The translations under genes and the position numbers were made by a program. Under the pieces are notes generated by a model. That model had not been told where the DNA came from. It saw only the letters and a list, made by a program, of their open reading frames with translations, and searched no databases. From positions 140,505 through 204,504 of the forward strand of contig CAWJWO010000003.1 in assembly GCA_963846585.1 (NCBI GenBank): a stretch of DNA of 64,000 nucleotides, written 5' to 3'. This document shows, piece by piece, positions 8,820 through 61,632 of the stretch. The stretch's first letter is position 1. The number at the start of each line of letters is the position of its first letter. The stretch is from an uncultured Bacteroidota bacterium. GTDB lineage: Bacteria; Bacteroidota; Bacteroidia; Bacteroidales; JAAUTT01.

Positions 8820-9095
8820 TTACCGGTTTATTGTGATGTATCCTATTTTTTCCTTTTCACCGTTATTGAAATTTATTATGTAGAAATAAGTTCCGTTTGG
8901 TAAATTATTGTTAATCAGTATTCCGGCATTTGCAACTCCATTCCAGTCGTTTTGATAATTTTTACTTTCATATACCTTATCACCCCATCTGTTGAATACC
9001 TGAAGTGTAATTTGGAACTGTTCAGCTCCTTTTATAACGAAATAATCGTTTATACCATCACCGTTGGGCGAGAAACCTTCAGGAATGAAAACCTT
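8820..9095 (-). other. T9SS type-B C-terminal sorting domain (coding sub-region of the giant adhesin)
   Basis: The last ~91 aa, KVFIPEGFSPNGDGINDYFVIKG...NRWGDKVYES...WNG...LPNGTYFYII...GYITINR, match the gliding-motility-associated C-terminal domain pattern. Confidence 0.8.
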
Positions 9096-12000: not shown

Positions 12001-15000
12001 CCTGTACCGGCCAGTGTACCTCCACACGATCCGGTGTACCATGCAATAGATTCGCCAGTGCCGGCTCCTCCACCACTAAGGGTTAAGACAGTGTTATAAC
12101 CGTTACATATAGTATCAGCGCTTGCAGTAGCAGAACCGGGATCCGCCGAAGTCTGGTTTACCGTGATTGTTATTGTTGCGCATACCGAATTATAATTACA
12201 TGGCGTGCCATCCTCATAACGTCCATAATATGTAGTTGAAATAGCTGGGCTTACTGTCAGGTTATTTCCAGTGCCTGCCGGTGTACCTCCACATGATCCG
12301 CTGTACCATTGAATCACTTCACCGGTTCCACCTCCTCCACCGTTAAGTGTTAATATTGTGGTTCCTCCGTTACAAATCGTATCAGTACTTGCACTGGCAG
12401 TACCAGGATCTGCCGAAGTCTGGTTTACCGTGATGGTTATTGTTGCACATGCTGAATTATAATTACATGGGGCACTATTTTCATACCGTCCATAGTAGGT
12501 AGTTGTTACAACCGGGCTTACCTCAAGGTTATTGCCTGAACCTGCGAGTGTTCCGCCACATGAACCTGTATACCATTTTATTGATTCAGATTCTCCACCA
12601 CCACCTCCGTTAAGCGTTAACACAGTGTTTCCTCCATTACAAATAGTTGTCGAACTGGCTGTGGCTGAAGCCGGATCTGCAGATTTCTGATTTACAGTGA
12701 TGGTTATTGTTGCACATGCTGAATTATAATTACAAGGTGCGCCATCTTCATACCGTCCATAATAGGTAGTTGTTATAGCAGGATTTACGTTCAGGTTATT
12801 CCCTGTTCCTGCTAATGTACCTCCACACGATCCAGTGTACCAATGAATTATTTCGCCGGTACCTCCGCCTCCACCATTAAGAGTTAAGATAGTATTACCT
12901 CCATCACATATAGTGGTTAAACTGGCAGTTGCAGAAGTTGGGTCAGTCGATTTTTGATTCACTGTAATAGTCACTGTGGCACATGCAGAATTATAGCTGC
13001 ATGGAGAACCATCTTCATAGCGTCCGTAATATTTAGTTGTAGTGATTGGGCTCACTATTATATTATTGCCAGTGCCGGCCAAAGTGCCTCCACACGATGC
13101 TGTATACCAGGTGACTACTTCACCGATACCACCACCTCCACCATTAAGTGTTAATGTAGTGCTTCCCCCATTACAAATAGTTGTTGAAGTTGCAGTTGCA
13201 GAAGCCGGATTGGCCGATTTCTGGTTTACAGTTATAGTTATTGTTGCACAAGCTGAATTATAATTACATGGTGCACCATCTTCATAGCGTCCGTAATATG
13301 AAGTTGTTACAACCGGATTTACTACCAGGTTATTCCCTGAACCAGCGAGAGTGCCACCACACGATGCTGTATACCATTTTATAGATTCAACTGCTCCACC
13401 ACCGCCTCCATTTAGAGTTAAGGTAGTGTTTTGTCCATTACATATTGTTGAAGAGGTTGCAGTTGCCGAGGTTGGATTGCCCGATTCCTGGTTTACAGTA
13501 ATAGTGGTTGCCGAAGAATTCGCCGATGCACATCCACCACTTGTTACTACGGCACGGTATTGTGTAGAAGTATTTAAATTGGTTGCTGTAAGTGTATTAG
13601 TTGTATTTGCAATATCCACCGGTGTAACCCAATTATCTATGCTTGATTGCCATTTGGTTACAGAGCCTGTATTACCTGACAATGTTAAACCTGTACTATT
13701 AATACCTGCACAAACGGTTGTACCCCCGGTCACAGTTCCGCCAACTGATGCAGGGCTTACTATAAATGAAGCTCCCGGGCTGGTATAATCGCAATTGGAT
13801 GAATTGCTCGTGTTAAGACGATATTGATATGTTCCGGTAGCAGTAGTACCTGAGATTGTCATACCTGAAGTTGTCGCGTTGGTATAAGTGGTTCCTGCAG
13901 GTGTTCCGTTTACTACATTTCCCCATGCAGATCCGTTATAATATTGCCACTGGTAAGTGGGAATACCTGTTCCTCCGCTTATATTACTGCTAACTACCGT
14001 GCTCCCACCGATACATATATTACTATTCGTGAATATTGGTGCAGTAAGTGTTGGATCTGCATCTACAGTGACAATAACAGTATTGGATGTTGCAGTAGTG
14101 CATCCACTCCCGGCGGCTTTTACCAAACATTGATACTGATAGCTTCCTGCATTTGAAATACCTGCTACAGAAAAAGTAGTACTTGTTTTTCCTGTATAAG
14201 TACTACCGGCCGGAGTACCATTAACCACATTACCCCAGGAAGAACCATTATAATATTGCCATTGATAAGTCAGGGAAGGTGTACCTCCATTGCCTGCAAT
14301 TGTCATGTTGGCTGAAGTACCTCCTGTACATATACTTGCAGGGCTTAGAGGTTGGGTTGAAACGGATGGGTCGGCATCAACAGTAATTGTTACAATATTT
14401 GATGTTATTTGTGTACAAACAGGATTAGTAATTTGCACCACCAACTGGTATGATTGGGCACCTGTTGCTGTAGTTCCACTAACGGTCATACTTGCAGTAG
14501 TACTGTTGGCATAGGTGCTACCGGCCGGTGTACCATTAACTACATTTGCCCATGTTCCGCTATTATCATACTGCCATTGATATGTATAGCCAATAGCTGG
14601 TACACCAACAACCGTCGCTGCTGTTAAAACAGAACTTCCACCGGCACAGATTGCAGAATTTGATGCGGAAGGCTGGGTTGAAATAAGTGGAACATAAACT
14701 GTCGCGCAGCTGGATGTTGCCGGATTACAATCGCTGCCAGTTGCAGAAACTATTACTTCGTAATAAGTTGTTTGAGTTAATAAAGCAGTGGTATAATTAC
14801 TGCTTGTTGCGCCAGCTATAGGAGTCCATGAGCCTCCGCAACCCGTCGTATTGGAATACCATTGATAATTAAGTGACGGGGTACCACCTGTTGCTGTTAC
14901 AGATAATGTAGTGGTAGTGCCACTGCAAATGGTTGTAGATGTAGCAGGTTGTACAGTTATTGTTGGTTCAGCTATAACACTTACTGTTACCGGATTAGAT

Positions 15001-18000
15001 ATATTTGTTATACAACCGCTTCCAGAAGCCGTAATAACACATTGATACTGATAATTTCCGGCTAATGTAGTACCGGCTACCGAAAAAGTTGTACCTGTAG
15101 CTCCTGTATAAGTACTCCCGGTTGGTGTTCCGGCGGATACATTAACGAATGAAGTGCCGTTATAATACTGCCATTGATAAAATAGTGAAGGTGTGCCTCC
15201 TGTTGCTGCCACTGTCATGCCGGTTGTAGTTCCACCCACGCAGATACCTGCCGGGCTGGAAGGTTGTGAAGTGAAAATGGGATCAGCAAGTACGGTTAAA
15301 GTTGCCGTATTGGATGTAAGTGGTGCACAAACAGGTGATGTAACCTGGATAACTACCTGGTATTTTTGGGTACCGATAGGGGTAATTCCATTAACAGTCA
15401 TGCTATTTGTTGTTGCATTAGTATAGGTACTTCCTAAAGGTGTGCCGTCTGCAACATTGTTCCAGGTACCGCTGTTATATTGCCATTGATAGGAATAATC
15501 AATTGTACCGCCACCAGGATCGGTAGCGACAGTAATTGTAGATCCCCCGCTAACACAAATGTTTGTATTTGCTGGTGTCGGTTGTGTAGTGATGCCCGGT
15601 ACATAAACTGTTGCACAGTTAGATGTTACCGTATTACAATCGCTTCCGGTAGCTGAAACCTGAACCCTGAAATAAGTAGTTTGAGTTAGTGCCAAAGTAG
15701 TATAACTATTGCTGGTGGCTCCGGGAATACTGGTCCAGGAACCTCCGCAACCTGTTGTATTTGATTGCCATTGGTAATTAAGTGAAGGTGCTCCACCTGT
15801 AGCTGTCACCGACAATGACGTGGTGCTGCCATTGCAAATAGTTGTTATGGCCGCGGGTTGCAATGTAATAGCTGGATCATCTGCAACAGTTAAGGTTGCT
15901 GCACCAGATATAACGGTATTACAATCACTTCCGGTTGCTGAAACCAGACATTGATACTGGAAGTTTCCTGCTGAAGAAATTGACGCGACGGTTAATACCG
16001 AAGTTGTTGCATTTGTATAAACAGAACCTGCCGGAGTACCATTCACAACATTGTTCCATGAAGTTCCGTTATAATATTGCCATTGGTAAATTAATGCCGG
16101 AGTACCTCCCGTGGCTGTTAAACCGATATTGGCTGTACCTCCTATGCAAATAGCCGTGGGGTCAACCGGTTGTACCGAAATAGCCGGTTCAGCCGCAACA
16201 GAAAGTGTTACGGGGTTTGAGGTCGCTGTTGCACAACCATTGCCTGCAGCTTCAACCAACGCCTGATAATTATAGCTACCCGGAATTGAAATCCCTTCAA
16301 CTGAAAAAGATGTGCCGTTTGATCCTGTATAAGTACTTCCTGCAGGTGTTCCGTTGACCACATTCTCCCACGTACCACTATTATTATATTGCCATTGATA
16401 GGTAAGTGAAGGTGTACCGCCTGATGCTGAAATATTCATATTGGCAGAAGTACCACCGATACAAATAGCGGCCGGAGTTGAAGGTTGAGAGGTAAAAGTT
16501 GGATCAGCTACTACAGTATAGGAAGATCCTGCACTGGTATAGTCGCAACCTGATGAATTACTGGTATTCAAGCGATACTGGTAATTCCCCGGGGAGGTAG
16601 TTCCGGTAATAGTCATCGACAAACTGTTTGCATTAGTATAGGTAGACCCGGCAGGTGTTCCGTTAACAACGTTATTCCATGCCGAACCATTATAATATTG
16701 CCACTGGTAAGCCGGAGTACCTATCCCGCCACTGATTGTACTGCTAACAACAGTACTTCCTCCTGCACAAATAGTAGCAATTGTATATATTGGTACAGTA
16801 AGAACAGGATCTGCTACTACATTTAATGTAACTGTATTGGATGTGGCAGTACTGCAGCCATTACCTGTTGCTGAAACAAGGCATTGATATTGGTAACTTC
16901 CTGTATTTGATATTCCTGATACTGAGAAAGTTTCAGTTGCAGCACCTGAATAGGAAGCACCTAAAGGTGTTCCATTTACTACATTATTCCATGAACCGTT
17001 ATAATATTGCCATTGATAATTTAGTGCCGGAGTGCCACCTGTTGCTATAATGCTCATATTGTCTGAAGTTCCACCCGCACATATGTTTGCAGGGCTCACA
17101 GGTTGAGTGGTTATGCCAGGAATATCAACAACAGTAACAGTAGCAGGTGTTGACGTTGTTAAACATCCTCCATCACCTGAAAGAACCTGATCAGTCACAA
17201 TAACCTTGTAAACATAATTCCCTGTAATGGCTAAGGAAGGAGTACTATAATTATTGGTATTTGTTCCAAGATTATTCCATATTCCTCCCGTGAAATACTG
17301 CCATTGATAGTTATATGAACCCGTTCCTCCGGAAGCAGAAACATTCAATGTTTGTGTACCATTCTGACAAATTGAGGCATTTGACGGTCCTGTCAAAATA
17401 ATTGGCACACGGTTTGTTACGGTAACTGTTGACAGGGAAGCAGAACATGTGCCATTTGTTATATTCCATTGGAGCACATATGTTCCTGGAATAGTTCCCG
17501 TGATAGTAGTTGCAGGAGATCCAGGAGTAGTTATACTCGGAGAATTCGGCCCACTTACTAAACTCCATGTGCCGGTACCATAAACAGGGGTATTCCCTGC
17601 CAGGGTAAAAGTTGTGGCATTGCAATAACTTTGTGCCGGACCCGCGTCAGAGGATGTAGGAAGATTATAGTTTATAACCTGTAAACTATCCGTTGAAATA
17701 CATGAACCATTTGCAATGGTATACATGAATACATAAACACCAGGCACTAAACCATTAACACTGGCAGGATTTGATCCGGTTATGGTTGGTGAATCAGTAC
17801 CGCTGAGCAAGGACCAGGTTCCGGTACCCGAAGAAGGAATATTTCCTGTAAGTGATGTATTTGAAGAGTTGCAAAGATATTGGTCAGCTCCTGCAACAGC
17901 CATTGACGGAATATTATTTATTGTTATATTCACAGTGGAGCTGCTGGAATCACAAATTCCATTAATAATAGTCCATCTTAACACGTATGTACCCACTATA

Positions 18001-21000
18001 GTACCCAAAAGTTCTGTATTTGGATCATTAGCATTTACGAATAATGCGGAACTGGGTCCTGAAACCTGTGTCCATGTTCCTGTGCCGACAACCGGGATAT
18101 TGGCGGTAAGTGTAATATCAGTGTAGTTACAAACTGATTGATTAGTACCTGCATTAGAGGCAGTGGGTGCCGGATCAATAATTATTTGCACGGTATCACT
18201 GGCAGAACAGGAGTTATAGGATGACGTCCATTCAATTAGATATGTGCCTGCTATTAAGCCTGTTGCTGTAGTTACAGGATTATTGACGTTGGTAAACGAA
18301 GCTGTATTTGGTCCGCTTAGCTGACTCCATGTGCCTGTACCAGTGTTAATAATATTACCCGCCAGCGAAACAGTGCTGACATTACATTGTTCCTGGTCAG
18401 GTCCTGCATCAGGGGCAGTAGGCGGAACATTGGTGTTTATTGTTAAATCTGCTGTACTTGGTGTACATACTCCATTTGATATTGTCCAGCTAAAAACATA
18501 CGATGATGCTTCGGCACATGTTACAGAACTGGAGGGTGAAATAGGTGATTCTATTGTTGCACCACCCGGGCCGCTGACCAATGACCAGTTTCCAACCCCT
18601 GTTGCAGGTGTATTACCTGATAAGGTAGTGGTATATCCGCATATATTTTGAGTAGCTCCAACAGTGGCTGTTGTCGGGGTAGCATAATCTTCAATTGAGA
18701 CCTGATCTGTAGATGAACAATTACCATTTGTAACAGTCCATTCCATTATGTAAGTTCCTGCCCCACCGGTGGGAGTAAATGATGTGTTGTAAATATTACC
18801 ATTAGCAAATGTACCTGCAGGTCCGCTTACTTCACTCCATGTACCTGTTCCAACTACAGGATTATTGCCATTCATGTTAAATAAGGCGGCATTGCACAAT
18901 TGTTGATCAGTTCCTGCATCAGGTACCGAAGGCACAGCTGAATTTACAACAGTTATATCAGCATAAGAGGAACTACAGCCATTTGAAATGGTAAAACGAA
19001 AATCGTAACTACCTGGTGTCATTCCGGTAACAACAGCAGTGTTTATTCCTGTTGAAGTAATAGTGCATGAAGGTCCTGATATTTGTGTCCAGATACCTGT
19101 AGCTTCTGAATTTCCAGTTAGATATGTTGTTGTTTCATTACATAAATTTTGGTTTGAGCCTGCATTGGCTGCAGGTGTAAAGTTAATTACCACTGTGTCG
19201 CTAGAGGAAGGACAATAAGGTCCATTCTGTGAAGTCCACAGCATTTGATATGTTCCATATATAAGGTTGGATAATACCGCTGCAGGAGAAGTGATGTTTG
19301 AAATTGCCGGGTAGTTTGGGCCTGATATGTATGACCAGGTACCTGAACCTACAGTTATTGCATTCGCGGCTAAGTCAGCTGTAGTTGCAGGAGGGCAGAT
19401 ATTCTGATTGGGACCGGCATTGGCAGTAGTTGGCGGACTGGAAACATATAGGTTAACATAGGAATAGTTTGATGGGCAGGCATAATTTGTGACATTCCAC
19501 TTAAAGGTATAAACTCCTGTAACCAGATTTGAAATAGTTGGCGTTGACGATAGTGTATCACTGATTGTTGCAAGGCCCGGACCTGATATCTGCGACCATG
19601 AACCTACACCTACTGATACAGCATTACCTGAAAGTGTAGTCGATGTTCCGCAAATTTGCTGTTCTGAACCTGCCAAAGAGGTAGTAGCAGGTTGTGAAAT
19701 TGTTACCATAACAGTATCAACCGTCGAAGAACAACCATTCCAATTAATTTCCCACTGAAACAGGTAGTTCCCCTTAGACATGCCGGTAACGGTAGTAGCC
19801 GGTGAATTAACGTCTGTAATAGAACAGGCAGGTCCGGAAATCTGCGACCATATACCTGTTCCTGATTCAGGATTATTTCCTGATTGTGTTATAACGGTAG
19901 TTGAAGCACTCTGACACTGATCGGGACCAGCATTTGCTTGTACGGGACCCTGAATACCACTAGTTGTTATAACAACTGTACTTGAATCAGCACCGCAGGC
20001 ATTTGCAATTTTCCACTGAAAAGTATAAACTGTATTTGCAATCAAACCTTTAACAATAGCATGCGGAGTGTGAATATCACTGAAAATAACACCTTCACCC
20101 GGAGTAACTGACCATGTACCTGTTTCATTTATTGCAGGAGAATTACCCTGCAAGATTGTAGTTGTAGCGTAACAAACAGTAGTAGAGTTTCCGGCAGCAG
20201 AAGTTGTAGGTGTAGGCGGTGAAACTATCACATTTACATCATCTTCACTAGTTGTACCGTTAGCACCGGCAGTTATCGACCAGCGAAACACATATTTTCC
20301 CGGTATTAAATTACTAATAGGTGAATCGTTGAAATTTGGATTACTTATTACTGCATTATTTGGCCCGCTTACCTGGTACCATACACCTGTTCCTACAGAT
20401 GGAATATTTCCGGCAAGTGCTGTGCTAAAAACATTACAAGCAAGATCCTGAGCAGTTCCTGCATTTGATGCCGTAGGCGTTTGGGAAATAAAAATATTCA
20501 TATCAGCATCAGCTTCCCCGCAACCTCCAATTCCACCATTGGTATATCTTCTGAACCTTATCACATATTGACCTTCAACATTGGGTACAGCCACTAATTG
20601 CGGGCTCTCGCTGTTAATCCAGGATGGATTGGATACGGTACCTGAAGGAGTTTCAACAATAGCGTATGATGTATTGGTACCACCTTCAAATGTATAAGTT
20701 ACAGTTGTGGATGTATCATTAACAGGCAGGATAACGTTTGTTGATGATGTTATAGAAATGGATGGTGGATCGAGTGTTGAATAACTAAGAGTTACAACTC
20801 CTGATGTAGATGAGCAGGCAGTAACAGAGTTTGTAATATTATATTCAAAAGTTGATGAAGCAGGTGGATTTAGTCCTGTAACAGTTGTTTGAGTATTGTT
20901 GGGACTTATTATAGTTCCTGCTCCGGATAATTTTGTCCAGGTAACCACTTCGTTCGCATATGTCGGGTTATCACCAATAAGAACTGCTTCAACCCGGGAA

Positions 21001-21980
21001 TCACAAAATGTCTGACTGCCCTGGGTAACGTTTGCTGCAGAGTTAGATCCTACCGGGGATGGAATAGTTACATTTACTGTACTGCTGCCACTTAAACAAG
21101 GGCCGGATACTGTCCATCTAAAAATATATGTCCCGCTTATAAGGTTGGTAACACTTGTTGTATTGGAAGAAGGGTTAGTTATATCAGGTGTATTTGGCCC
21201 GGTTACAACCGACCATAATCCTGATTGCCCTCCCGTTCCATTGCCTCCATAGGAACCTGAAAGGTTACAGGAAGTGGTGGTTGTAAAACAATGTGAAATA
21301 TTCTGGTTTGTACCGGCGCTGACAGGGCTTACTCCCCCCCTGTTTTTTATCACTACATCACTATATGATGAACATCCGTTTGTACTGGTCAATGTCCAGC
21401 GCAGGGTGGTAGCACCAGCCGAATTTTCTGACAATGTTATTGTACTTGTAGAAGATTCAGGTGAATTGATAGTTATACCATAATTATTTCCAACAATAGT
21501 CCATAGACCTGATTGTCCTATTCCCGGTGCATTACCTGCAAGTGAATATGTGCCCGGGCAATATGTTTCCGGTGTACCGGCCGTGGCAATAGCAGCGGAT
21601 TTTACAACTATACTTACATCATTGTACACTAATGTTCCATCCTGGCAGGTTGAAGATATTCTAAACTGGTAAGTGTTGCCGCCAGTGAACCCGGTGACAG
21701 TTGTTACAAGATTTTCAGGGTTAGTTATAATACAGGAAGGACCACCGATCTGGGACCAGGTTGTAATCCCGGAACCTTGAAATAATCCGGCTTTTGAGCC
21801 ATGTAATATCATGGCTTCATTCGCACAAATTGTATCATTAATGCCGGAATTGACCGAGCAGTTCTGACCTTTGGCAGTATGTATTATAATTATTGATAAA
21901 AGCAGACAACTAAGTAACCTGATACTAATATTTTTATAAATAATTAATAAATTCACATTTCTCCAACTTTTAAAATTCAT
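8820..21980 (-). CDS. Giant (4386 aa) repeat-rich cell-surface adhesin with T9SS type-B sorting (CHU_C / gliding-motility C-terminal) domain; SprB-like
   Basis: Single uninterrupted 13.2-kb ORF with an N-terminal signal-like segment. It contains three families of tandem Ig/PKD-like repeats and cadherin-like modules. The C-terminal FIPEGFSPNGDGINDYFVIKG...GTYFYII...GYITINR motif is typical of type-B T9SS sorting domains. Confidence 0.9.
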   Translation of the reverse strand: MNFKSWRNVNLLIIYKNISIRLLSCLLLSIIIIHTAKGQNCSVNSGINDTICANEAMILHGSKAGLFQGSGITTWSQIGGPSCIITNPENLVTTVTGFTGGNTYQFRISSTCQDGTLVYNDVSIVVKSAAIATAGTPETYCPGTYSLAGNAPGIGQSGLWTIVGNNYGITINSPESSTSTITLSENSAGATTLRWTLTSTNGCSSYSDVVIKNRGGVSPVSAGTNQNISHCFTTTTSCNLSGSYGGNGTGGQSGLWSVVTGPNTPDITNPSSNTTSVTNLISGTYIFRWTVSGPCLSGSSTVNVTIPSPVGSNSAANVTQGSQTFCDSRVEAVLIGDNPTYANEVVTWTKLSGAGTIISPNNTQTTVTGLNPPASSTFEYNITNSVTACSSTSGVVTLSYSTLDPPSISITSSTNVILPVNDTSTTVTYTFEGGTNTSYAIVETPSGTVSNPSWINSESPQLVAVPNVEGQYVIRFRRYTNGGIGGCGEADADMNIFISQTPTASNAGTAQDLACNVFSTALAGNIPSVGTGVWYQVSGPNNAVISNPNFNDSPISNLIPGKYVFRWSITAGANGTTSEDDVNVIVSPPTPTTSAAGNSTTVCYATTTILQGNSPAINETGTWSVTPGEGVIFSDIHTPHAIVKGLIANTVYTFQWKIANACGADSSTVVITTSGIQGPVQANAGPDQCQSASTTVITQSGNNPESGTGIWSQISGPACSITDVNSPATTVTGMSKGNYLFQWEINWNGCSSTVDTVMVTISQPATTSLAGSEQQICGTSTTLSGNAVSVGVGSWSQISGPGLATISDTLSSTPTISNLVTGVYTFKWNVTNYACPSNYSYVNLYVSSPPTTANAGPNQNICPPATTADLAANAITVGSGTWSYISGPNYPAISNITSPAAVLSNLIYGTYQMLWTSQNGPYCPSSSDTVVINFTPAANAGSNQNLCNETTTYLTGNSEATGIWTQISGPSCTITSTGINTAVVTGMTPGSYDFRFTISNGCSSSYADITVVNSAVPSVPDAGTDQQLCNAALFNMNGNNPVVGTGTWSEVSGPAGTFANGNIYNTSFTPTGGAGTYIMEWTVTNGNCSSTDQVSIEDYATPTTATVGATQNICGYTTTLSGNTPATGVGNWSLVSGPGGATIESPISPSSSVTCAEASSYVFSWTISNGVCTPSTADLTINTNVPPTAPDAGPDQEQCNVSTVSLAGNIINTGTGTWSQLSGPNTASFTNVNNPVTTATGLIAGTYLIEWTSSYNSCSASDTVQIIIDPAPTASNAGTNQSVCNYTDITLTANIPVVGTGTWTQVSGPSSALFVNANDPNTELLGTIVGTYVLRWTIINGICDSSSSTVNITINNIPSMAVAGADQYLCNSSNTSLTGNIPSSGTGTWSLLSGTDSPTITGSNPASVNGLVPGVYVFMYTIANGSCISTDSLQVINYNLPTSSDAGPAQSYCNATTFTLAGNTPVYGTGTWSLVSGPNSPSITTPGSPATTITGTIPGTYVLQWNITNGTCSASLSTVTVTNRVPIILTGPSNASICQNGTQTLNVSASGGTGSYNYQWQYFTGGIWNNLGTNTNNYSTPSLAITGNYVYKVIVTDQVLSGDGGCLTTSTPATVTVVDIPGITTQPVSPANICAGGTSDNMSIIATGGTPALNYQWQYYNGSWNNVVNGTPLGASYSGAATETFSVSGISNTGSYQYQCLVSATGNGCSTATSNTVTLNVVADPVLTVPIYTIATICAGGSTVVSSTISGGIGTPAYQWQYYNGSAWNNVVNGTPAGSTYTNANSLSMTITGTTSPGNYQYRLNTSNSSGCDYTSAGSSYTVVADPTFTSQPSTPAAICIGGTSANMNISASGGTPSLTYQWQYNNSGTWENVVNGTPAGSTYTGSNGTSFSVEGISIPGSYNYQALVEAAGNGCATATSNPVTLSVAAEPAISVQPVDPTAICIGGTANIGLTATGGTPALIYQWQYYNGTSWNNVVNGTPAGSVYTNATTSVLTVASISSAGNFQYQCLVSATGSDCNTVISGAATLTVADDPAITLQPAAITTICNGSTTSLSVTATGGAPSLNYQWQSNTTGCGGSWTSIPGATSNSYTTLALTQTTYFRVQVSATGSDCNTVTSNCATVYVPGITTQPTPANTNICVSGGSTITVATDPGGGTIDYSYQWQYNSGTWNNVADGTPLGSTYTNATTNSMTVNGITPIGTQKYQVVIQVTSPVCAPLTSNTATLTVLADPIFTSQPSSPAGICVGGTTTGMTVAATGGTPSLFYQWQYYNGTSFVNVSAGTPTGSTYTGATGTTFSVAGTTLAGNYQYQCVITASGSGCITNISNPVTVSVIAEPTITVQPATSTTICSGTTTTLSVTATGGTPSLNYQWYSNTTGCGGSWTPIAGATSSNYTTALLTQTTYYEVIVSATGSDCNPATSSCATVYVPLISTQPSASNSAICAGGSSVLTAATVVGVPAIGYTYQWQYDNSGTWANVVNGTPAGSTYANSTTASMTVSGTTATGAQSYQLVVQITNPVCTQITSNIVTITVDADPSVSTQPLSPASICTGGTSANMTIAGNGGTPSLTYQWQYYNGSSWGNVVNGTPAGSTYTGKTSTTFSVAGISNAGSYQYQCLVKAAGSGCTTATSNTVIVTVDADPTLTAPIFTNSNICIGGSTVVSSNISGGTGIPTYQWQYYNGSAWGNVVNGTPAGTTYTNATTSGMTISGTTATGTYQYRLNTSNSSNCDYTSPGASFIVSPASVGGTVTGGTTVCAGINSTGLTLSGNTGSVTKWQSSIDNWVTPVDIANTTNTLTATNLNTSTQYRAVVTSGGCASANSSATTITVNQESGNPTSATATSSTICNGQNTTLTLNGGGGGAVESIKWYTASCGGTLAGSGNNLVVNPVVTTSYYGRYEDGAPCNYNSACATITITVNQKSANPASATATSTTICNGGSTTLTLNGGGGGIGEVVTWYTASCGGTLAGTGNNIIVSPITTTKYYGRYEDGSPCSYNSACATVTITVNQKSTDPTSATASLTTICDGGNTILTLNGGGGGTGEIIHWYTGSCGGTLAGTGNNLNVNPAITTTYYGRYEDGAPCNYNSACATITITVNQKSADPASATASSTTICNGGNTVLTLNGGGGGESESIKWYTGSCGGTLAGSGNNLEVSPVVTTTYYGRYENSAPCNYNSACATITITVNQTSADPGTASASTDTICNGGTTILTLNGGGGGTGEVIQWYSGSCGGTPAGTGNNLTVSPAISTTYYGRYEDGTPCNYNSVCATITITVNQTSADPGSATASADTICNGYNTVLTLSGGGAGTGESIAWYTGSCGGTLAGTGNNLVVSPTINTTYFGRYEDGIPCNYTSACAAITIAVNQTSADPTSATSNADTICNGDNTILTLNGGGGGTGEVIKWYTGSCSGNLAGMGNNLVVGPTITTTYYGRYEDGLPCSYASACDTITITVNQISADPTSSTASSDTICTGDITILTLNGGGGGTGEVIKWYTVSCGGILVGTGNDLLVTPDTTTTYYGRYEDGSPCNYSSACARVTITVNQQSADPASIVASSATICNGSNTTLTLIGGGGGNYQTIKWYAGICGGLLSDTGRTVILSPDTTTIFYVRYEDGAQCDYASACKSIAITVDQKSADPTAATAAADTICIGGSTTLNLQGGGGGTGEIIAWYTVSCGGILVGTGNNLLVNPDTNTIYYGRYEDTTLCNYSSECKTVTITVNRLSADPTSATAGSTSICQGDTTTLTLNGGGGGADETIKWYTKSCGGILTGTGNNVAVNPDTTTTYYGRYEDGAPCKYNSACDSVTINVKQTPGIPLIDTLIQPTCTISTGSVGLVGLPATGAWTITESEESTKITGSGPTSIFSNLAANKAYTFKVTNDSSCSSLSSNNAVINAQPLTPAAPTGVSPQTFCGEANPKLSDFVVLGSDITWYMSSAGGTFIADTTVLISGLTYYAGQTIGGCESAARLAMKDSILPCITLKNISRTILENDTLQFVSNDFTSSFSDSNAYSLVSIEIMSLPENGKLLLSGSPVVISEAINIYDIGNLSFVPNNNWYGSTNFAWNAYDGKYYSISNASVNIIVIPVKHTPILISPTIIDTIPSKGGAKTINIVNNISNIDGDTLTYSIISGPDHGKASISGAGLLVYSPDSTYIGMDTITYQVCNNAIPPQCVTGEVVLNDTGYNSIMHVPVISDIVDTIVENTTLQFQSAQFTSKFTDVNNDTLVKIQIGSLPANGTLSLNSLDVTIGQEILKDNLNILFFAPLKDFTGMTSFIWTASDGIVYSSAANVNIIVTPQKVFIPEGFSPNGDGINDYFVIKGAEQFQITLQVFNRWGDKVYESKNYQNDWNGVANAGILINNNLPNGTYFYIINFNNGEKEKIGYITINR
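10569..13505 (-). repeat. 11 tandem in-frame 267-bp (89-aa) coding repeats, TITVNQxSADPxSATA..ICxG..T.LTLNGGGGG..E.I.WYTGSCGG.L.GTGNNL.V.P..TTTYYGRYEDG.PCNY.SACA
   Basis: I counted 11 units in the translation. Unit boundaries were verified at nt 13505 (TITVNQES) and 10569 (..ACDSV). The pattern resembles Ig-like domains associated with CHU_C proteins. Confidence 0.85.
13506..17410 (-). repeat. About 13 tandem ~100-aa Ig-like coding repeats carrying the Y(Q)WQYYNGS.W.NVVNGTPAGSTYT motif, with a higher-order duplication
   Basis: The YQWQ motif recurs 12-13 times. Blocks such as ..SGISN.GSYQYQCLV.A.G.GC.TATSNTV..V.ADP.LT.PI.T...IC.GGSTVVSS.ISGG.G.P.YQWQYYNGSAW.NVVNGTPAG.TYTNA.. appear twice, nearly identical. 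Confidence 0.8.
17411..21860 (-). repeat. About 16-17 tandem ~85-aa PKD/HYR-like coding repeats (AG.DQ..C....L.GN.P..GTGTWS..SGP.......P.T.V..L..G.Y...W...NG.C.S...V.I)
   Basis: The (T/S)G(T/I/L)WS..SGP motif recurs about every 85 aa through the N-terminal third of the protein. Confidence 0.75.
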
Positions 21981-29285: not shown

Positions 29286-29286
29286 G

Positions 29287-29346
29287 TGTCAGTAAGAAAA
29301 CACCAATTTTTTTGTTACGCTCGTCAGAAAAATGCTCATTTGTTAA
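29287..29346 (+). repeat. Single copy of a ~57-bp repeat module (TGTCAGYAAGAAAACACCAA...GTTAYGCTCRTCA.AAAAATGCTCATTT)
   Basis: About 85% identical by eye to the left arm of the 36911-37029 palindrome. Begins 1 nt after the DUF2723 gene stop codon. Confidence 0.8.
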
Positions 29347-29349
29347 ATT

Positions 29350-29374
29350 AGGGACACGCACAAGGCGTGTCCCT
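29350..29374. terminator. GC-rich perfect hairpin between convergent genes (candidate bidirectional terminator)
   Basis: AGGGACACGC (29350-29359), loop ACAAG, GCGTGTCCCT (29365-29374), giving a 10-bp perfect stem. It is followed by ACATTTTC and lies between the DUF2723 gene (+) and mdh (-). Confidence 0.55.
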
Positions 29375-31204: not shown

Positions 31205-31206
31205 TA

Positions 31207-31423
31207 GAACCAGGAGCCAAGAGCCAGGATTTGAGATGTTAAAAAGAGGACAGAGAACAGAAGACAGATATAAGATAAATGATTTGAGATTTGAGATTTG
31301 AGAATCCAGATTTAAGATTTGAGATTTTTAATTCAGTAAGACTATTAAAATCCTAATTCTAGAATCAAAAATCTAGAATCTTAAATCATAAAGTCTTGGT
31401 TCCTGGTTCCTGGTTCCTGGTTC
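31207..31423. repeat. Composite STR block: (GAACCAGG-like) at 31207-31229, (GACAGAA) at 31247-31270, (GATTTGA)x~6 at 31281-31327, (TCTAGAATC) x2 at 31357-31387, (TGGTTCC)x4 at 31395-31423
   Basis: Read directly. The two outermost arrays are reverse complements of each other. Confidence 0.9.
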
Positions 31424-31432
31424 TAATTTTAT

Positions 31433-36909: not shown

Positions 36910-36910
36910 T

Positions 36911-37029
36911 TGTCAGCAAGAAAACACCAATATCTTCGTTATGCTCATCATAAAAATGCTCATTTACTAAAGTAAACTGCGCTTTTTATGATTTCGCATG
37001 CCTTGATCTTGGCGTTTTCTTATCTGACA
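36911..37029. repeat. 119-bp imperfect palindrome made of two inverted copies of the ~57-bp module (MITE/REP-like or structured RNA)
   Basis: Left arm TGTCAGCAAGAAAACACCAATATCTTCGTTATGCTCATCATAAAAATGCTCATTTAC. The reverse complement of the right arm is TGTCAGATAAGAAAACGCCAAGATCAAGGCATGCGAAATCATAAAAAGCGCAGTTTAC. Centre is TAAA. Begins 1 nt after a stop codon. Confidence 0.85.
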
Positions 37030-37086
37030 AGATTTAAGTAAATAGATTTTTATATTGTAATTTGACTTTAATGGCAATAGTTTGGA

Positions 37087-37190
37087 TCATAAAGTTCGTA
37101 GCCGAGGCTTGCGAAGTTTAAAAATCAGGAGTTTACTTACGTAAATGACTGATTTTTAAACGAGCGTAACGAAGGCTACGGACTTTATGG
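37087..37190. repeat. Second ~104-bp imperfect palindrome sharing the module core (CTTCGTTACGCTCGTTTAAAAATCAGTCATTTAC) but with different termini
   Basis: Arms are TCATAAAGTTCGTAGCC...GTTTAAAAATCAG..TTTAC and their inverse. A 13-bp perfect inner stem, GTTTAAAAATCAG/CTGATTTTTAAAC, flanks the centre TTACGTAA. Confidence 0.8.
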
Positions 37191-37201
37191 ACAAACTGTA
37201 A

Positions 37202-38182: not shown

Positions 38183-38250
38183 ATAATCTTTTTTAAATGG
38201 ATTATTATATAAACTTTCAGGAATAGGACGGATATGGGAGATTAAAAGTT

Positions 38251-38313
38251 ACAGGTTACAGGTTACAGGTTGCAGGTTACAGGTTACAGGTTGCAGGTTG
38301 CTGATTACAGGTT
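38251..38313. repeat. (RCAGGTT)x9 heptamer array abutting the anti-sigma stop codon
   Basis: ACAGGTT x3, GCAGGTT, ACAGGTT x2, GCAGGTT, GCTGATT, ACAGGTT. The TAA stop (38312-38314) overlaps the array by 2 nt. Confidence 0.95.
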
Positions 38314-39343
38314 ATTGGGTATTTTTTGATTGGTAAAAACCGATCAGAGGCGTTTCAAAAGATATTATTTTTCTTGATTTTCCCTTTTTATTTGAAAATT
38401 TCAAATAATTACCAGTTATATCGTTGATTTGTTGAATTTTAGATTTAACAAATGCCATTATTACTGAACTCGCATAATTGTTAATTATTGAATCAGGCTT
38501 TGACCTTGCCAATAAATTCATAGGGTCTATAGTATCTCTTGTAGAATTTATCAGTTTTATTGTCCTGGCGGGAATTATATTTAATTCCAATACATAAAGG
38601 GTCCTGTCAGGATTCAAATCATTATCGGACGATAATTTATCCACGCTATCTGTTAAGTTTGTTATTCCTGTATCTTTAACAGTCCGAATAATATTCCTTT
38701 TTGTATATTGCTGATATGCCTGACTGAATATGACTTTATTTGAGGTACTGTTTTTAGTTATGTTTTGGCTGATAGCTATATGTTTTTGATTCTTAGGAAC
38801 TGAAATTGATATTTTATTAATATGGTTAATATCACTTTTATTATATCGTGAAAAAACCGATGCTATCACCAGAAAAACAACTATTGATGCAGCTATTCCC
38901 AATAAGCCGGCAACCGACACTGAACCTATATTATGCCTCTTTAATCTTCCTTTATACTGGTACCGGATTGTATTATCGGGCTGAAACCTTGATTTTGTAA
39001 ACAATTCAAAATCTTTTGATTTAGAAGGATTGTTAATGATAAACTTTTTTAACTCATCTTTCTGGATATCAGAAAGGTCATCTTCAGTATAAGCAATGCA
39101 AAAGTCATTAAAATTATAACGGTTTACAGGTAATTGCAGTTTTTTACCTTTTTTCAGGTATTCTTTATCAGCAAATGAAATATTATCCTGATTTACAGGC
39201 TTAACTTCCATTTCTTCCAGTTGCTGCTTAATATCAGGATTTTCAGATAAAAACAATAGAAAGTATTCCATCTCCGGTGGACTAAGTTTGCCTTCGAGGT
39301 AATCTATGCAATATTGTTCGTAATTATTTCTATTTATGATCAT
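38312..39343 (-). CDS. Putative membrane-anchored anti-sigma factor
   Basis: 343 aa. The N-terminal YCIDYLEGKLSPPEMEYFLLFLSENPD segment is typical of Bacteroidota anti-sigma N-termini. Single TM (VAGLLGIAASIVVFLVIASVF). Sits downstream of an ECF sigma gene. Confidence 0.55.
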   Translation of the reverse strand: MIINRNNYEQYCIDYLEGKLSPPEMEYFLLFLSENPDIKQQLEEMEVKPVNQDNISFADKEYLKKGKKLQLPVNRYNFNDFCIAYTEDDLSDIQKDELKKFIINNPSKSKDFELFTKSRFQPDNTIRYQYKGRLKRHNIGSVSVAGLLGIAASIVVFLVIASVFSRYNKSDINHINKISISVPKNQKHIAISQNITKNSTSNKVIFSQAYQQYTKRNIIRTVKDTGITNLTDSVDKLSSDNDLNPDRTLYVLELNIIPARTIKLINSTRDTIDPMNLLARSKPDSIINNYASSVIMAFVKSKIQQINDITGNYLKFSNKKGKSRKIISFETPLIGFYQSKNTQ

Positions 39344-39360
39344 TGCATTTGTTTAATTTA

Positions 39361-39575
39361 GAACCAGGAACCAAGACCTGAAAATAGTTGTTAGTTTTTA
39401 GTTGCTGGTTGTTAGTATATAGATTTTAGTGCATAGTGCTTAGTGCTTAGTATTTAACAACCTTTATAATTTATATAAACATTATAAACTTTAAACGAAT
39501 AAACAAATAAACGAATAAACTAAATAAGCACTATGCATCAAACACTATGCACTAAGCACTATGCACTATGCACTA
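39361..39575. repeat. Composite STR block between ECF sigma and anti-sigma genes: GAACCAGG at 39361-39378, TAGTTGY at 39385-39417, TAGTGCW at 39427-39452, (AAACGAAT/AAACAAAT) at 39493-39527, inverted GCACTAW at 39528-39575
   Basis: Read directly. The arrays at 39427-39452 and 39528-39575 are reverse complements of each other. Confidence 0.9.
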
Positions 39576-40058
39576 AATTACCGCCTCAGGACTCCCGATA
39601 TAATTCTTTAAAAAGAGCCTTGCCCTGTAAATGTATACTTTCACCTGAGATTCATTAAGTTCGGTTATTTTACCAATTTCTTCATATGAATATCCTTCAT
39701 AATCCCTGAGCAATACAACAGACTTTTGAATTTCAGGCAGCATTTCCAAACCCTTGTCGAGAACTTCACTAAGATCGGAATACTGATTGTTATGAATTAA
39801 AGCTTCGGGTTTAACCTCATTAAAGTTACCTTGTTTTTTTTCATGTCGTAACAAGTCAATAATCAGGTGATAAGCTGTAGTAAATAGGTATGATTTTGAT
39901 TTTTCGAATTGCACCTCATCAACCCTTATCCATAATTTTTCAAAGCTATCCTGCACAATATCAGATGATTTATCTTTATCCTTCAGATTTTTAAGGATAA
40001 ATCTGTAGAGATTATCAGAAAATAAATCAACACATGTATTGAATTCCCCGGTAGTCAT
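39573..40058 (-). CDS. ECF-type RNA polymerase sigma-70 family factor
   Basis: 161 aa. Region 2 (..DIVQDSFEKLW...YLFTTAYHLIIDLLR) and region 4 HTH (..VVLLRDYEGYSYEEIGKITELNESQVKVYIYRAR). Confidence 0.85.
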   Translation of the reverse strand: MTTGEFNTCVDLFSDNLYRFILKNLKDKDKSSDIVQDSFEKLWIRVDEVQFEKSKSYLFTTAYHLIIDLLRHEKKQGNFNEVKPEALIHNNQYSDLSEVLDKGLEMLPEIQKSVVLLRDYEGYSYEEIGKITELNESQVKVYIYRARLFLKNYIGSPEAVI

Positions 40059-40317
40059 TAAAAATATACACTCATTTTTACTATGACGGGTATAACATAT
40101 AAAAAGTTACAGCTGTTATTGTAACATTTTGGTCACTTAACCGTCATACGATTAACAATTTTAAAATTAATTTCATTACCATCTCCAATTTTGCATAATA
40201 AAATTTTATTATGATAAAAACAAACAACAGACATTATTTACAAGTGTTGATTTTAAATTATATTAAGATATTGGGTTCAGTATAGGTGCCGGATACAATT
40301 TCAGCAATAAAATGAGC

Positions 40318-40416
40318 TTATATAACAATATTGCTAGCTAACAACCTAACATCCTCAAAAATCTCTTTGGATTTTAAAACCCGATAATCAATATAATCTT
40401 GCTTTGTGCCAGGCAT
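40318..40416 (-). pseudogene. Truncated HEPN-domain toxin remnant (32 codons) coupled to the MNT gene
   Basis: I translated this by hand as MPGTKQDYIDYRVLKSKEIFEDVRLLASNIVI*. Its ATG overlaps the MNT stop (TAATG). The sequence resembles the first helix of HEPN partners of MNT nucleotidyltransferases, but stops after 32 aa where about 110-130 would be expected. Confidence 0.55.
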
Positions 40417-40736
40417 TATAAATAAATCCCCTCTCTTTTAATATTTTGATAAAGAGGAGTAATTCCATGTTTTTGCTCCCACTCACTTTTTGAAAATACA
40501 AATGTTGAAATAGGTTCTCCTATTTCAAGCTCAATATCAAAAAGTTCATCTCTATATTCTTTCTCTATCATTCGAGTAACATCGGTTTGATTAAGAAGTA
40601 TCAATATATCCCAATCTGAATCATTATGGGATTGTCCACGAGCATGTGAACCAAAAAGAATTATATCAGCAGAAGGATTTTTCTTCTTAATCCTTGCCTT
40701 AATCAATTGTGTGATATTAATTTCCTTTGTATTCAT
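40416..40736 (-). CDS. MNT-type nucleotidyltransferase-domain protein (antitoxin-like)
   Basis: Minimal NTase motif ILFGSHARG......SDWDILIL. The likely start is ATG at 40736 (MNTKEINITQ); the ORF track extends to 40778. Confidence 0.8.
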   Translation of the reverse strand: MNTKEINITQLIKARIKKKNPSADIILFGSHARGQSHNDSDWDILILLNQTDVTRMIEKEYRDELFDIELEIGEPISTFVFSKSEWEQKHGITPLYQNIKREGIYL

Positions 40737-40914
40737 ATAGCAAATATAACCTGAACTATGTAGATTCGCAAATAACATGATACTTCAAATTATAGCCCGG
40801 GTTTATTTCCCGTGCATAGCTTATGGGATTGTTTGGAGATCCCCGCACACCCGGGATTAAGTCCGGACTGCGTTCTATAGTATAGCTTATATAGAAAAAG
40901 AATTTAGTATCTTT

Positions 40915-41106
40915 GTGAAAAATATGCATATGAGCACTAAAACTGTAAAACCAACCAAGGAAAAAAGTTGGGCTCTTCCTGGAGCAAAGTTTACACATGT
41001 AGAATTTGTTGAGAAAATACGCAAAGCTGAAGAAGGCCCTTTCTACACGCTTGTAGAAATAAAAGAAATGCGTAAACAATGGAAGAATTCAAAGAAAGAC
41101 CTGTAG
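40915..41106 (+). CDS. Small putative antitoxin (positional call)
   Basis: 63-aa ORF (GTG at 40915; alternative ATGs at 40924 and 40930) immediately upstream of the ParE/RelE-like toxin gene, overlapping it by 28 nt. Confidence 0.45.
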   Translation: MKNMHMSTKTVKPTKEKSWALPGAKFTHVEFVEKIRKAEEGPFYTLVEIKEMRKQWKNSKKDL

Positions 41107-41414
41107 CGTATTCCAAACAATATGCAATAGATACACTTGAAATATATCTCTACGGTATAGAAACTTTTGGAGAATACCTAGCCAATAAATACGAAGATCT
41201 TATAGATAAAATTACATCCGAACTTTCTCAAAATTATTGGATGTACCCTGAATGTAGACATTTACCCACAAAAGGACATATATATCGGAATGTCATTCTT
41301 GAATCTCATTTGATTATTTACCGTGTAAAGACTGAAAGATTAGAAGTGCTGGGTGTTTTTCACTCCAAATCAAGTATTACCAGGATAAGAACAGCCCGCA
41401 ATCTTAAAATTTAA
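41079..41414 (+). CDS. ParE/RelE-family type II toxin
   Basis: 111 aa. Pattern ..YSKQYAIDTLEIYLY....G......YEDLIDKI...L...P..........YR......HLIIYRV....LEVLGVFH is typical of ParE-like toxins. Confidence 0.65.
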   Translation: MEEFKERPVAYSKQYAIDTLEIYLYGIETFGEYLANKYEDLIDKITSELSQNYWMYPECRHLPTKGHIYRNVILESHLIIYRVKTERLEVLGVFHSKSSITRIRTARNLKI

Positions 41415-48684: not shown

Positions 48685-48920
48685 AGATGTGCAGATGTGT
48701 AAATTTACAGATGGTGAATAATTACTTATTACTAATGACAAATGAAAAGAGAGCCAGGAACCAAGAACCAGGAACCAAGACTAGGAACATGTAACTTGTA
48801 ACCTGTAACCTGCAACCAGTAATATATTAATACATAAACCTTATAGACCTTATCAACCTTATCAACCTTATCAACCTTATAAATTGAATAAACGAAAATA
48901 CTTTATAAACTTCATAAACG
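48684..48920. repeat. Composite STR block: (CAGATGTG-like) at 48684-48716, (CCAGGAACCAAGA) at 48750-48787, (TGTAACC/TGCAACC) at 48788-48823, (AACCTTATC)x~4.5 at 48837-48881, (CATAAAC-like) at 48901-48920
   Basis: Read directly downstream of the GT-C gene. Confidence 0.9.
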
Positions 48921-51280: not shown

Positions 51281-51455
51281 TGCATAGTGAATAGTGCATA
51301 GTGCATAGTGCATAGTGCATAGTAATTTGTGCTTAGTATATACAATATAACATTTTAACTGATGGCATTTATTGCTTTGGCCCCAGGCCTCTGGCCCCTG
51401 ATCCCTGGCCCCTGGTCCCTGATCCCTGGCCCCTGGTCCCTAGCCCCTAGCCCCC
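51277..51455. repeat. (ATAGTGC)x~8 at 51277-51338 and a C-tract array (CCCTGRYC-like)x~10 at 51379-51455
   Basis: Read directly. The first array supplies the TAG stop of the caspase gene (51278-51280). Confidence 0.95.
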
Positions 51456-55304: not shown

Positions 55305-55532
55305 TGGGGGGGGGTAGGGATTAGTGGCCAGGGGTTAGTGGTTAATTGCAGGTTACAGGATAAAAGTGATGAAGTGATGAAGTGATGAGGTGATGAAGTG
55401 ATTAAGTTTATAAGATTTCCCATAAACTTTATAAACCTCATAAACCAATTAGTAATTTGTAATCAGTAATTTGTAATTTGTAATTTGTCATCTGCACATC
55501 TGCACATCTGCACATTTTCACATCTGCACATT
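55305..55532. repeat. Composite STR block: G-tract words at 55305-55341, GCAGGTT at 55346-55360, (GTGATGAA)x~5 at 55365-55406, (CATAAAC-like) at 55421-55446, (AGTAATTTGTAAT-like) at 55448-55488, (CATCTGCA)x~5 at 55489-55532
   Basis: Read directly. The block fills the whole spacer between trxA and the LOG-family gene. Confidence 0.9.
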
Positions 55533-61214: not shown

Positions 61215-61323
61215 GGGCTAGGGGCTAGGGACTAGGGACTAGGGGCTAGGGACCAGGGACTAGGGACTAGGGACCAGGGACTAGTTGTTGGTTGCAGGTT
61301 ACAGGTTGCAGGTTGCAGGTTTT
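61193..61323. repeat. (GGGRCYA)x13 heptamer array at 61193-61284, followed by (GCAGGTT/ACAGGTT)x~5 at 61285-61323
   Basis: The 13 heptamers were counted by hand. The array begins inside the last codons of mpl. Confidence 0.95.
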
Positions 61324-61429
61324 AGATTGGTTTAATAAGTTACTATCAAAAAGTAACCGTACCCTGAGCGGAGTAGAAGGGTACAACATTTACAAACTAA
61401 TATTCTCTAATAACATTATAGATATTAAC

Positions 61430-61470
61430 ACATACAACTAACAACCAACAACCAACAACTAACAACTAAA
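61430..61470. repeat. (CAACTAA/CAACCAA)x~5 heptamer array
   Basis: acatacaactaacaaccaacaaccaacaactaacaactaaa, read directly. Confidence 0.85.
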
Positions 61471-61507
61471 TTCAACAAAGAATAATATCAAAAACAAGAG
61501 CAATATT

Positions 61508-61557: not shown

Positions 61558-61632
61558 GGCCTGTTCGTCTAACGGTTAGGACGCAAGATTTTCATTCTTG
61601 AAATAGGGGTTCGATTCCCCTACGGGCTACCA
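61558..61632 (+). tRNA. tRNA-Glu (anticodon UUC), CCA encoded
   Basis: Hand-folded cloverleaf. Acceptor GGCCTGT/ACGGGCT, D arm GTCT-AACGGTTA-GGAC, anticodon arm CAAGA-TTTTCAT-TCTTG (TTC at positions 34-36), variable loop AAAT, T arm AGGGG-TTCGATT-CCCCT, discriminator A plus CCA. The layout parallels E. coli tRNA-Glu. Confidence 0.85.

Follow-up and report, generated by a model that had tools for sequence, protein, structure and literature searches.

Intergenic repeats described previously and how the present locus compares

In enterobacteria, REP/BIME elements such as the malE-malF REP form hairpins that are able to stabilise the mRNA upstream of them and to shift the balance of expression between the genes of an operon. 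Each REP is a conserved, imperfect palindrome some 35 nt long, and RAYT transposases mobilise it. The closest precedent for the locus described here is a different kind of repeat, the cyanobacterial 7-bp STRR (short tandemly repeated repetitive) hairpin in the intergenic region between hupS and hupL of Anabaena, Nostoc and Lyngbya, for which a role in transcript stability or translational coupling has been proposed and is unproven (PMC2670836). Long simple sequence repeats (LSSRs) in prokaryotic genomes have units of 5-11 nt (Mrazek et al. 2007); as that work is summarised in PMC4679880, heptamers are the commonest class of long SSRs in prokaryotes and polymerase slippage is proposed to give rise to them. 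Intergenic GGGAATC heptamer arrays in Xanthomonas are orientation-biased and some of them are inverted (Rehm et al. 2015, PMC4692102). TAACTGA heptamers occur in Beggiatoaceae, Cyanobacteria and Bacteroidetes (MacGregor 2015, PMC4679880), and for some Bacteroidetes the same article already mentions "assemblages of heptamer repeats".

We analysed a 64,000-nucleotide stretch of DNA from an uncultured Bacteroidota bacterium (the window), in which an ECF sigma factor gene and its probable anti-sigma factor gene are separated by 229 bp of short repeats. The repeats in this spacer are head-to-tail arrays with units of 7-9 nt, they belong to a non-coding, dispersed set, and their copy number varies between strains, as is the case for LSSRs and STRRs. 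Like the cyanobacterial STRRs, they are heptamer arrays in an intergenic region inside an operon, they can form a hairpin, and they are dispersed genome-wide. Unlike them, they are found in Bacteroidota, in a sigma/anti-sigma operon, and at least 10 words of 7, 8 and 9 nt are packed together in mosaics. With the LSSRs and the Xanthomonas and TAACTGA repeats they have in common an intergenic location, a predominance of heptamers, copy numbers that vary between close relatives, a bias of orientation and distance relative to ORFs, and some inverted pairs. They differ from those repeats in that the window is very dense (~10 arrays per 10 kb, ~12% of non-coding bases) and multi-word, and in that its arrays have no evident G-quadruplex potential and no preference for positions just upstream of starts. 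The resemblance to REP/BIME is that both are mosaic and intergenic, often lie between co-transcribed genes or at 3' ends, and form hairpins. Unlike REP/BIME, the blocks in the window are tandem arrays that have 7-9-nt words in common, and we found no conserved palindrome unit of greater length among them.

The spacer is therefore an unusually dense, multi-word example of intergenic heptamer-type repeats, and no conserved regulatory device. Our preferred explanation, which we regard as probable, is that it is a local case of the STRR/LSSR-like 7-9-nt repeats found between genes throughout the genome, that slippage made them grow into a formerly tight gene junction, and that its hairpin is a by-product. 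As a regulatory discovery in its own right, the sigma/anti-sigma spacer is of modest significance.

The probable sigma/anti-sigma operon

The operon and its putative control elements are as follows, in the direction of transcription (genomes and contigs other than the window carry L numbers):

40085..40111, minus strand: putative autoregulated ECF-type promoter TGTAAC-N17-CGTC upstream of sigma; aligns with the region upstream of the sigma ortholog in L005
39573..40058, minus strand: ECF sigma factor gene, 161 aa; Pfam Sigma70_r2 5e-8, Sigma70_r4_2 1.6e-15
39344..39572, minus strand: intergenic spacer of adjacent 7-9-nt tandem-repeat arrays, 229 bp; 257 bp in variant L001
38312..39343, minus strand: putative anti-sigma factor gene, 343 aa; one hydrophobic membrane-span-like segment near residues 141-163
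38248..38314, minus strand: GTTACAG array, 9.6 copies by Tandem Repeats Finder (TRF), between anti-sigma and the third gene; 14 nt longer in L001
38227..38253, minus strand: another copy of the ECF-type promoter motif TGTAAC-N17-CGTC, preceding the third gene; conserved in L005 and L008
37202..38182, minus strand: third gene of the triad, 326 aa, probably an outer-membrane beta-barrel protein; orthologs in L005, L125, L126 and L127 carry PF13568 OMP_b-brl_2

The original prediction was correct in placing both genes on the minus strand with 39344-39572 between them. The sigma factor belongs to the ECF type, being a 161-aa protein with regions 2 and 4 only, and its orthologs in L005, L007, L125 and L126 are likewise 161 aa long. 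The 343-aa protein itself has no Pfam or NCBIfam match. Among 16 homologs of it, eight match NCBIfam PRK13920 'putative anti-sigmaE' (best 4.8e-5) and six match NF052375 'anti-sigma factor', in both cases below the curated cut-offs, and one homolog (P0014) has a weak zf-HC2 match (E = 0.0017). The gene order sigma / 343-aa protein / OMP_b-brl_2 gene is conserved in seven lineages. This synteny and the family-level matches support the pairing of the two genes, and the 343-aa protein is probably an anti-sigma factor. A weak PDB profile match to DotF covered the membrane/low-complexity part of the protein, and we judged it meaningless as an identification. The window's own third-gene protein had no Pfam match.

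For the motif TGTAAC-N17-CGTC the window has four matches, with 0.08 expected; the copies preceding sigma and the third gene both align with corresponding positions in L005 and L008. Neither TGTAAC-N16-18-CGTC nor the Bacteroidota-type TAnnTTTG was found on the spacer's minus strand, so we rejected the idea that the anti-sigma gene has a promoter of its own there, and its mRNA probably derives from transcription that starts at the sigma promoter and reads through.

The last unit of the GTTACAG array is also the -35 element (TGTAAC) of the third-gene promoter (window 38227-38314). L005 and L008 have that promoter but lack the array, which may have grown out of a promoter heptamer that was already present or been attracted to it.

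Just upstream of the sigma operon, at 40416-41414, there is a gene for a nucleotidyltransferase-domain protein and a divergent ParE-toxin-like gene, which are likely a toxin-antitoxin pair. This segment is missing from the syntenic region of L005.

Repeat content of the spacer

Arrays in the spacer were called with TRF, and five of them have a period of 7-9. From the sigma stop codon towards the anti-sigma start, the features are:

39525..39576, minus strand: 5' arm of the hairpin; mRNA (UAGUGCW)n, ~7 units; plus strand GCACTAW (TAAGCAC); TRF period 7/14, 7.4 copies
39492..39527, minus strand: octamer array in the hairpin loop, TAAACAAA/TAAACGAA, mRNA UUCGUUUA/UUUGUUUA; TRF period 8, 4.4 copies
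39474-39493: tandem array (TRF)
39426..39452, minus strand: TTAGTGC/TAGTGCW array, the 3' arm of the hairpin; mRNA (WGCACUA)n, 3.7 units; TRF (39426-39451) and fold
39385..39416, minus strand: TAGTTGT/TGGTTGT array; mRNA reads ACAACYA; TRF; array also present in relative L009
39358..39380, minus strand: AGAACCAGG-family array (CCUGGUUCU on the mRNA); copy number variable between strains, 28 nt longer in L001
39344..39357, minus strand: A-rich stretch without repeats, immediately before the anti-sigma ATG; paired in none of the predicted folds

Tandem arrays make up ~75-80% of 39344-39572, compared with the earlier description of the spacer as consisting almost entirely of STR words. Two AACCAGG units are also found within it, at 39362-39375. 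The stop codon of the sigma gene (TAG, 39575-39573) is supplied by the GCACTAW array, being the first TAGTGCW unit on the minus strand. One detail needs correction: the region enclosed by the two arms was described as an A-rich loop, and on the transcribed (minus) strand it is U-rich (UUCGUUUA).

L001 and L002, two other assemblies independent of this one, contain the spacer too, which rules out an assembly artefact. Two Logan contigs built from short reads and belonging to the same species, L003 and L004, break inside the spacer (39376-39414). Such repeat mosaics break short-read assemblies and are therefore probably under-represented in MAGs. A search for small ORFs in the spacer turned up only an implausible 41-aa antisense ORF, and Rfam at the gathering threshold gave only a tRNA, at 61558-61629, in the window.

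The spacer in relatives and strains

ECF sigma and anti-sigma genes are normally tightly spaced, as the original prediction stated, and spacers of 3, 8, 14 and 35 nt at homologous loci agree with this. We compared the orthologous sigma/anti-sigma loci and found spacers of 3-87 nt without repeats and one of 158 nt in L009, the closest other lineage (z values refer to predicted folds):

L126: spacer 3 nt, no repeats
L008: spacer 8 nt, no repeats
L125: spacer 14 nt, no repeats
L127: spacer 35 nt, no repeats
L005: spacer 87 nt, AT-rich, no arrays; a small AGTAATT/AATTACT hairpin (one pair) right after the sigma stop codon, z -2.1
L009: spacer 158 nt; TAGTGC and ACAACTA arrays in the window's order; no inverted arm or hairpin, z -0.1
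Window and L002: spacer 229 nt; full mosaic with inverted arrays
L001: spacer 257 nt; CCTGGTTCT array, 17 nt upstream of the ATG, longer by two 14-nt units

Because the homologous junctions are tight, the 229-nt spacer is a derived insertion, and translational coupling between the two genes must be abolished. The series of spacers clearly shows stepwise and recent repeat growth in an ancestrally tight junction. The hairpin is absent from L009 and from all more distant orthologs. A junction that is tightly coupled elsewhere has thus been pulled apart quickly, from 3-35 nt to 229-257 nt within one clade, and both genes have remained intact, so the pair tolerates the loss of translational coupling.

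Strain-variant loci were located via the anti-sigma protein, the sigma protein having no exact entry in the assembly index. The anti-sigma protein is identical on five contigs, and the sigma and anti-sigma ORFs are both intact. The variation between strains extends beyond this spacer: the next one downstream, between the anti-sigma gene and the third gene, is 14 nt longer in L001 than in the window.

By malate dehydrogenase, the window has its best named matches in MAGs of uncultured Bacteroidales/Bacteroidota. L122 and L123, where this protein is 88% identical, are repeat-rich too and have part of their vocabulary in common with the window. L005 and L124 (84-85% identity) are repeat-poor.

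Predicted folding of the spacer transcript

The TAGTGCW and GCACTAW arrays are indeed reverse-complementary, as the original prediction stated, and give inverted arms at 39425-39451 and 39551-39577 that are 27 nt long, 96% complementary and 99 nt apart. For RNA of the minus strand the predicted fold has an energy of -70.7 kcal/mol (z about -5.5 to -6). None of 200 dinucleotide-shuffled versions was as stable, although a shuffled null is lenient for a sequence built from repeats. The plus strand of the spacer has a fold z of -5.0. The predicted stem is 20-27 bp with ~43% G+C and starts at, or up to 5 nt after, the sigma stop codon; the minimum-energy fold has the 5' arm paired. Between the arms, the loop of 75-99 nt carries arrays of its own. 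The ACAACYA array (39385-39416) is predicted to pair with the next array in a second, smaller hairpin. On the mRNA, the 3' arm is followed by AAAAUCUAUAUAC, without a U-tract.

In the three strain variants (window, L001 and L002) the hairpin is kept, with z of -6.1, -6.7 and -6.5 and a shifted pairing register. There are more units in the 5' arm than in the 3' arm, so several registers are possible. SNPs between the strains fall within the 5' arm; with one of them, found in L002, the first three units of this arm are perfectly complementary to the 3' arm. In L001 the additional 28 nt make the second hairpin longer (-84.3 kcal/mol, as against -70.7). In none of the three variants does the predicted fold pair the final ~30 nt ahead of the anti-sigma ATG, and the sequence of this stretch is the same in all of them.

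A stable RNA hairpin directly after a stop codon is a feature of intrinsic terminators. Unlike those, the spacer hairpin lacks a U-tract and has a loop of 75-99 nt as opposed to 3-8 nt and a stem of only ~43% G+C, and a consensus scan found no terminator-like site within 39344-39572. We therefore rejected an intrinsic terminator or attenuator of that type. Stems of 20 bp or more are in the size class recognised by RNase III, so RNase III processing of this hairpin is possible.

A rival explanation, in line with the original prediction, is that the hairpin is a dedicated intra-operon attenuator or processing element, which through termination, pausing or RNase III would lower anti-sigma relative to sigma mRNA or would separate their decay. 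We consider this unlikely, although several observations would suit it. The long and nearly perfect stem lies 5 nt past the sigma stop codon and within the RNase III size class, it is retained in all three strain variants, and in a spacer without a promoter the anti-sigma gene would depend on read-through. The same role has been proposed for the hupS-hupL STRR hairpins (PMC2670836). On the other side are the features that separate the hairpin from terminators, including the large loop and the missing U-tract, and its absence from L009 and more distant orthologs; furthermore, its arrays are drawn from a genome-wide vocabulary. Strong attenuation would also free a presumably autoregulated (positively) sigma factor from its inhibitor, whereas the two ORFs are intact and five contigs have an identical anti-sigma protein. 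It seems unlikely for this reason. It had been suggested that the spacer may uncouple or attenuate anti-sigma expression: uncoupling is supported by the derived 229-nt insertion in a tight junction, and a dedicated attenuator is neither shown nor favoured.

According to our preferred explanation, that of slippage-expanded repeats with the hairpin as a by-product, arrays of 7-9-nt repeats would accumulate next to gene ends throughout the genome and grow by replication slippage. Loops of at least 7 nt would escape mismatch repair, and units that are not a multiple of three would be kept out of coding sequence. Arrays would have expanded into the sigma/anti-sigma junction, originally a gap of just a few nucleotides, and two same-word arrays landing there in opposite orientation would have made the transcript able to form a 20-27-bp hairpin. 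Translational coupling of anti-sigma to sigma would be lost in the process. The anti-sigma factor would still be made from read-through transcripts begun at the ECF-type promoter upstream of sigma, its translation presumably starting from its own unstructured A-rich region, which the repeats have left free. The hairpin would contribute modestly at most, by stabilising the sigma segment at its 3' end, by making the polymerase pause or by offering RNase III a target, and would be no evolved attenuator. In favour of this explanation are the genome-wide distribution of the repeats, the derived, lineage-specific and unstable state of the spacer, the rarity of strong folds among the repeat blocks, the negative scans for terminators, Rfam families, promoter motifs and plausible ORFs, the unpaired and conserved anti-sigma initiation region, and the restriction of repeat richness to the nearer relatives.

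Three observations are counter-points to this explanation. The presence of the hairpin in all three variants, together with the L002 SNP that perfects the complement, might be a sign that pairing is maintained. In L005, the same sigma stop codon is directly followed by a small hairpin of another word. Pure neutral slippage also does not predict the non-random orientation of AACCAGG and TAGTGCW arrays in the window (see below). A real regulatory effect of the spacer hairpin is possible.

Strain variation in the spacer raises another possibility, namely that it is a contingency-type locus in which slippage alters copy number, hairpin register or the structure at the anti-sigma start, and thereby creates cell-to-cell differences in the sigma:anti-sigma ratio. 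The 28-nt difference between strains lies in the CCTGGTTCT array close to the ATG and lengthens the second hairpin, the main hairpin has several possible registers, and SSRs in 5' UTRs are known to tune expression (PMC4679880, PMC12721329). However, the neighbouring spacer varies equally, and a change of copy number is expected of any such repeat. The ~30-nt initiation region stays unpaired in all variants, and the repeats lie beside all kinds of genes, not mainly surface or stress genes. We think a contingency role improbable.

Repeats across the window

TRF reported 92 rows in the window, which reduce to 65 non-overlapping arrays of period 6-10, or ~10 per 10 kb. With a stricter detector, repeats covered 897 of 7512 non-coding bases (11.9%) and 107 of 56488 coding bases (0.19%), a 63-fold difference in favour of the regions outside genes. 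About 15 intergenic regions are mosaics of one vocabulary of 7-9-nt words, consisting of AACCAGG/CCTGGTT, TAGTGCW, GTTRCAG, TAGTTGT/ACAACTA, AACCTTAT, GTTTATNN, CACATCTG, ATCACTTC, AGTAATT, AGGGACT and GATTTGA. The arrays prefer the 3' flanks of genes, being present in 6 of 7 convergent regions and near the end of the upstream gene in long tandem regions, and the genes that they adjoin are of all kinds. The window is an unusually dense example of word mosaics in Bacteroidales, with repeats on ~12% of its non-coding DNA, and repeat-dense genomes for which metagenomic strain variants are available could serve for studying the origin of such repeats, their orientation and their effects on transcripts.

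Only 3 of the ~15 repeat blocks fold strongly compared with shuffles, namely 31205-31432, the sigma spacer and 61215-61480 (z -3.3), so we rejected hairpin formation as a general property of the blocks. The convergent region 31205-31432 has inverted AACCAGG arrays at both ends (TAGAACCAGG.../...CCTGGTTCTA) and a z of -8.2 on both strands. This region shows the same architecture more strongly than the sigma/anti-sigma spacer does.

Orientation of the words is not uniform across families. All eight AACCAGG arrays read away from the nearest gene, after stops and before starts alike; this polarity is a DNA-level dyad symmetry of the repeat blocks. For TAGTGCW, four of five arrays read away from the nearest gene by script and five of five by manual reading. 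The script's lower count goes back to one misassigned array, 1474-1494, that overlaps the stop codon of gene 1478-2563. Across nine word families, consistency of orientation is marginal (29/37, P about 0.06). Four stop codons are abutted or overlapped by TAGTGCW arrays in the sense orientation, in which three units give TAG in all three frames.

Inward-reading arrays are what one would expect if the block were a mobile or formerly mobile element (MITE- or REP/BIME-like) that had inserted between the genes with the arrays as its termini. Words do tend to read inward from both block ends, for instance at 31205-31432, and a non-repeat linker, ATTACTAATGAC..ATGAAAAGAGA, is common to the blocks at about 335-360 and 48730-48755. 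However, no two blocks have their overall order or length in common, no target-site duplication or transposase is evident, and the orientation tendency is the marginal one given above. Some of the arrays are moreover found in L009, in unchanged order, and this agrees with growth in situ, step by step. We regard insertion of a mobile element as very unlikely.

Several other repeats in the window are of a different nature or position. Two arrays, at 51362-51454 (TGGCCCC x11) and 55364-55441 (AAGTGATG x5.5), lie within the first codons of mechanically called longest ORFs. The true starts are probably downstream of both, and the arrays would then lie in 5' leaders. At 36910-37201 there is a strongly palindromic element (z -9.5) that is not made of STRs; its first ~64 nt (TGTCAGCAAGAAAACACCAAT...AAAAATGCTCATTT) recur at 29287 (29286-29350), downstream of another gene. 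This element may represent another type of dispersed repeat or a MITE-like hairpin. Eight tandem copies of a 267-bp (89-aa) repeat, with 73% identity, lie at 11377-13505 within a giant ORF (8820-21980, 4386 aa).

TAGTGCN arrays in other genomes

A literature search for the repeat sequence itself found no paper containing it. In a scan of species-representative genomes, a set that took in no genome of the window's own species, (TAGTGCW)3 gave at least 112 stretches in many phyla. Among the matches listed, many loci are repeat-rich, each with its own words. In viral contigs, triple repeats of TAGTGCW occurred 14 times, compared with 20, 13 and 28 for control heptamers of the same composition. 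Because the controls are equally common, this breadth is generic to heptamer arrays, and we rejected TAGTGCW as a special cross-phylum word.

The inverted arrangement of TAGTGCN is also found elsewhere. Among the matches listed, 14 of 15 inverted TAGTGCN pairs have the polarity of the window, with (TAGTGCN)n first. Six independent genomes are represented (Thermoguttaceae, another planctomycete, Acidobacteriota, Gemmatimonadales, Clostridia and Hymenobacter), and the TAG-first order holds in each of them. This raises the possibility that 5'-(TAGTGCN)n...(NGCACTA)n-3' is a recurrent hairpin module at gene ends that extends its stem by slippage and arm-to-arm copying, and that in the present operon it would set, and rapidly evolve, the sigma:anti-sigma ratio. 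We consider this a long shot. The gene context of the cross-phylum hairpins, as judged from crude stop-to-stop ORFs, is mixed.

Compact elements of the form (TAGTGCN)3-13 / 20-33-nt core / (NGCACTA)2-8 were seen at L042, L116 and L052 and at loci of the Thermoguttaceae MAG RGIG7588 (L050, L053, L056, L074, L083 and L101). In this MAG the arms flank a common small GC hairpin core (e.g. GAGGCGCTTTGCGCCTTTATTCC), which is present in either orientation.
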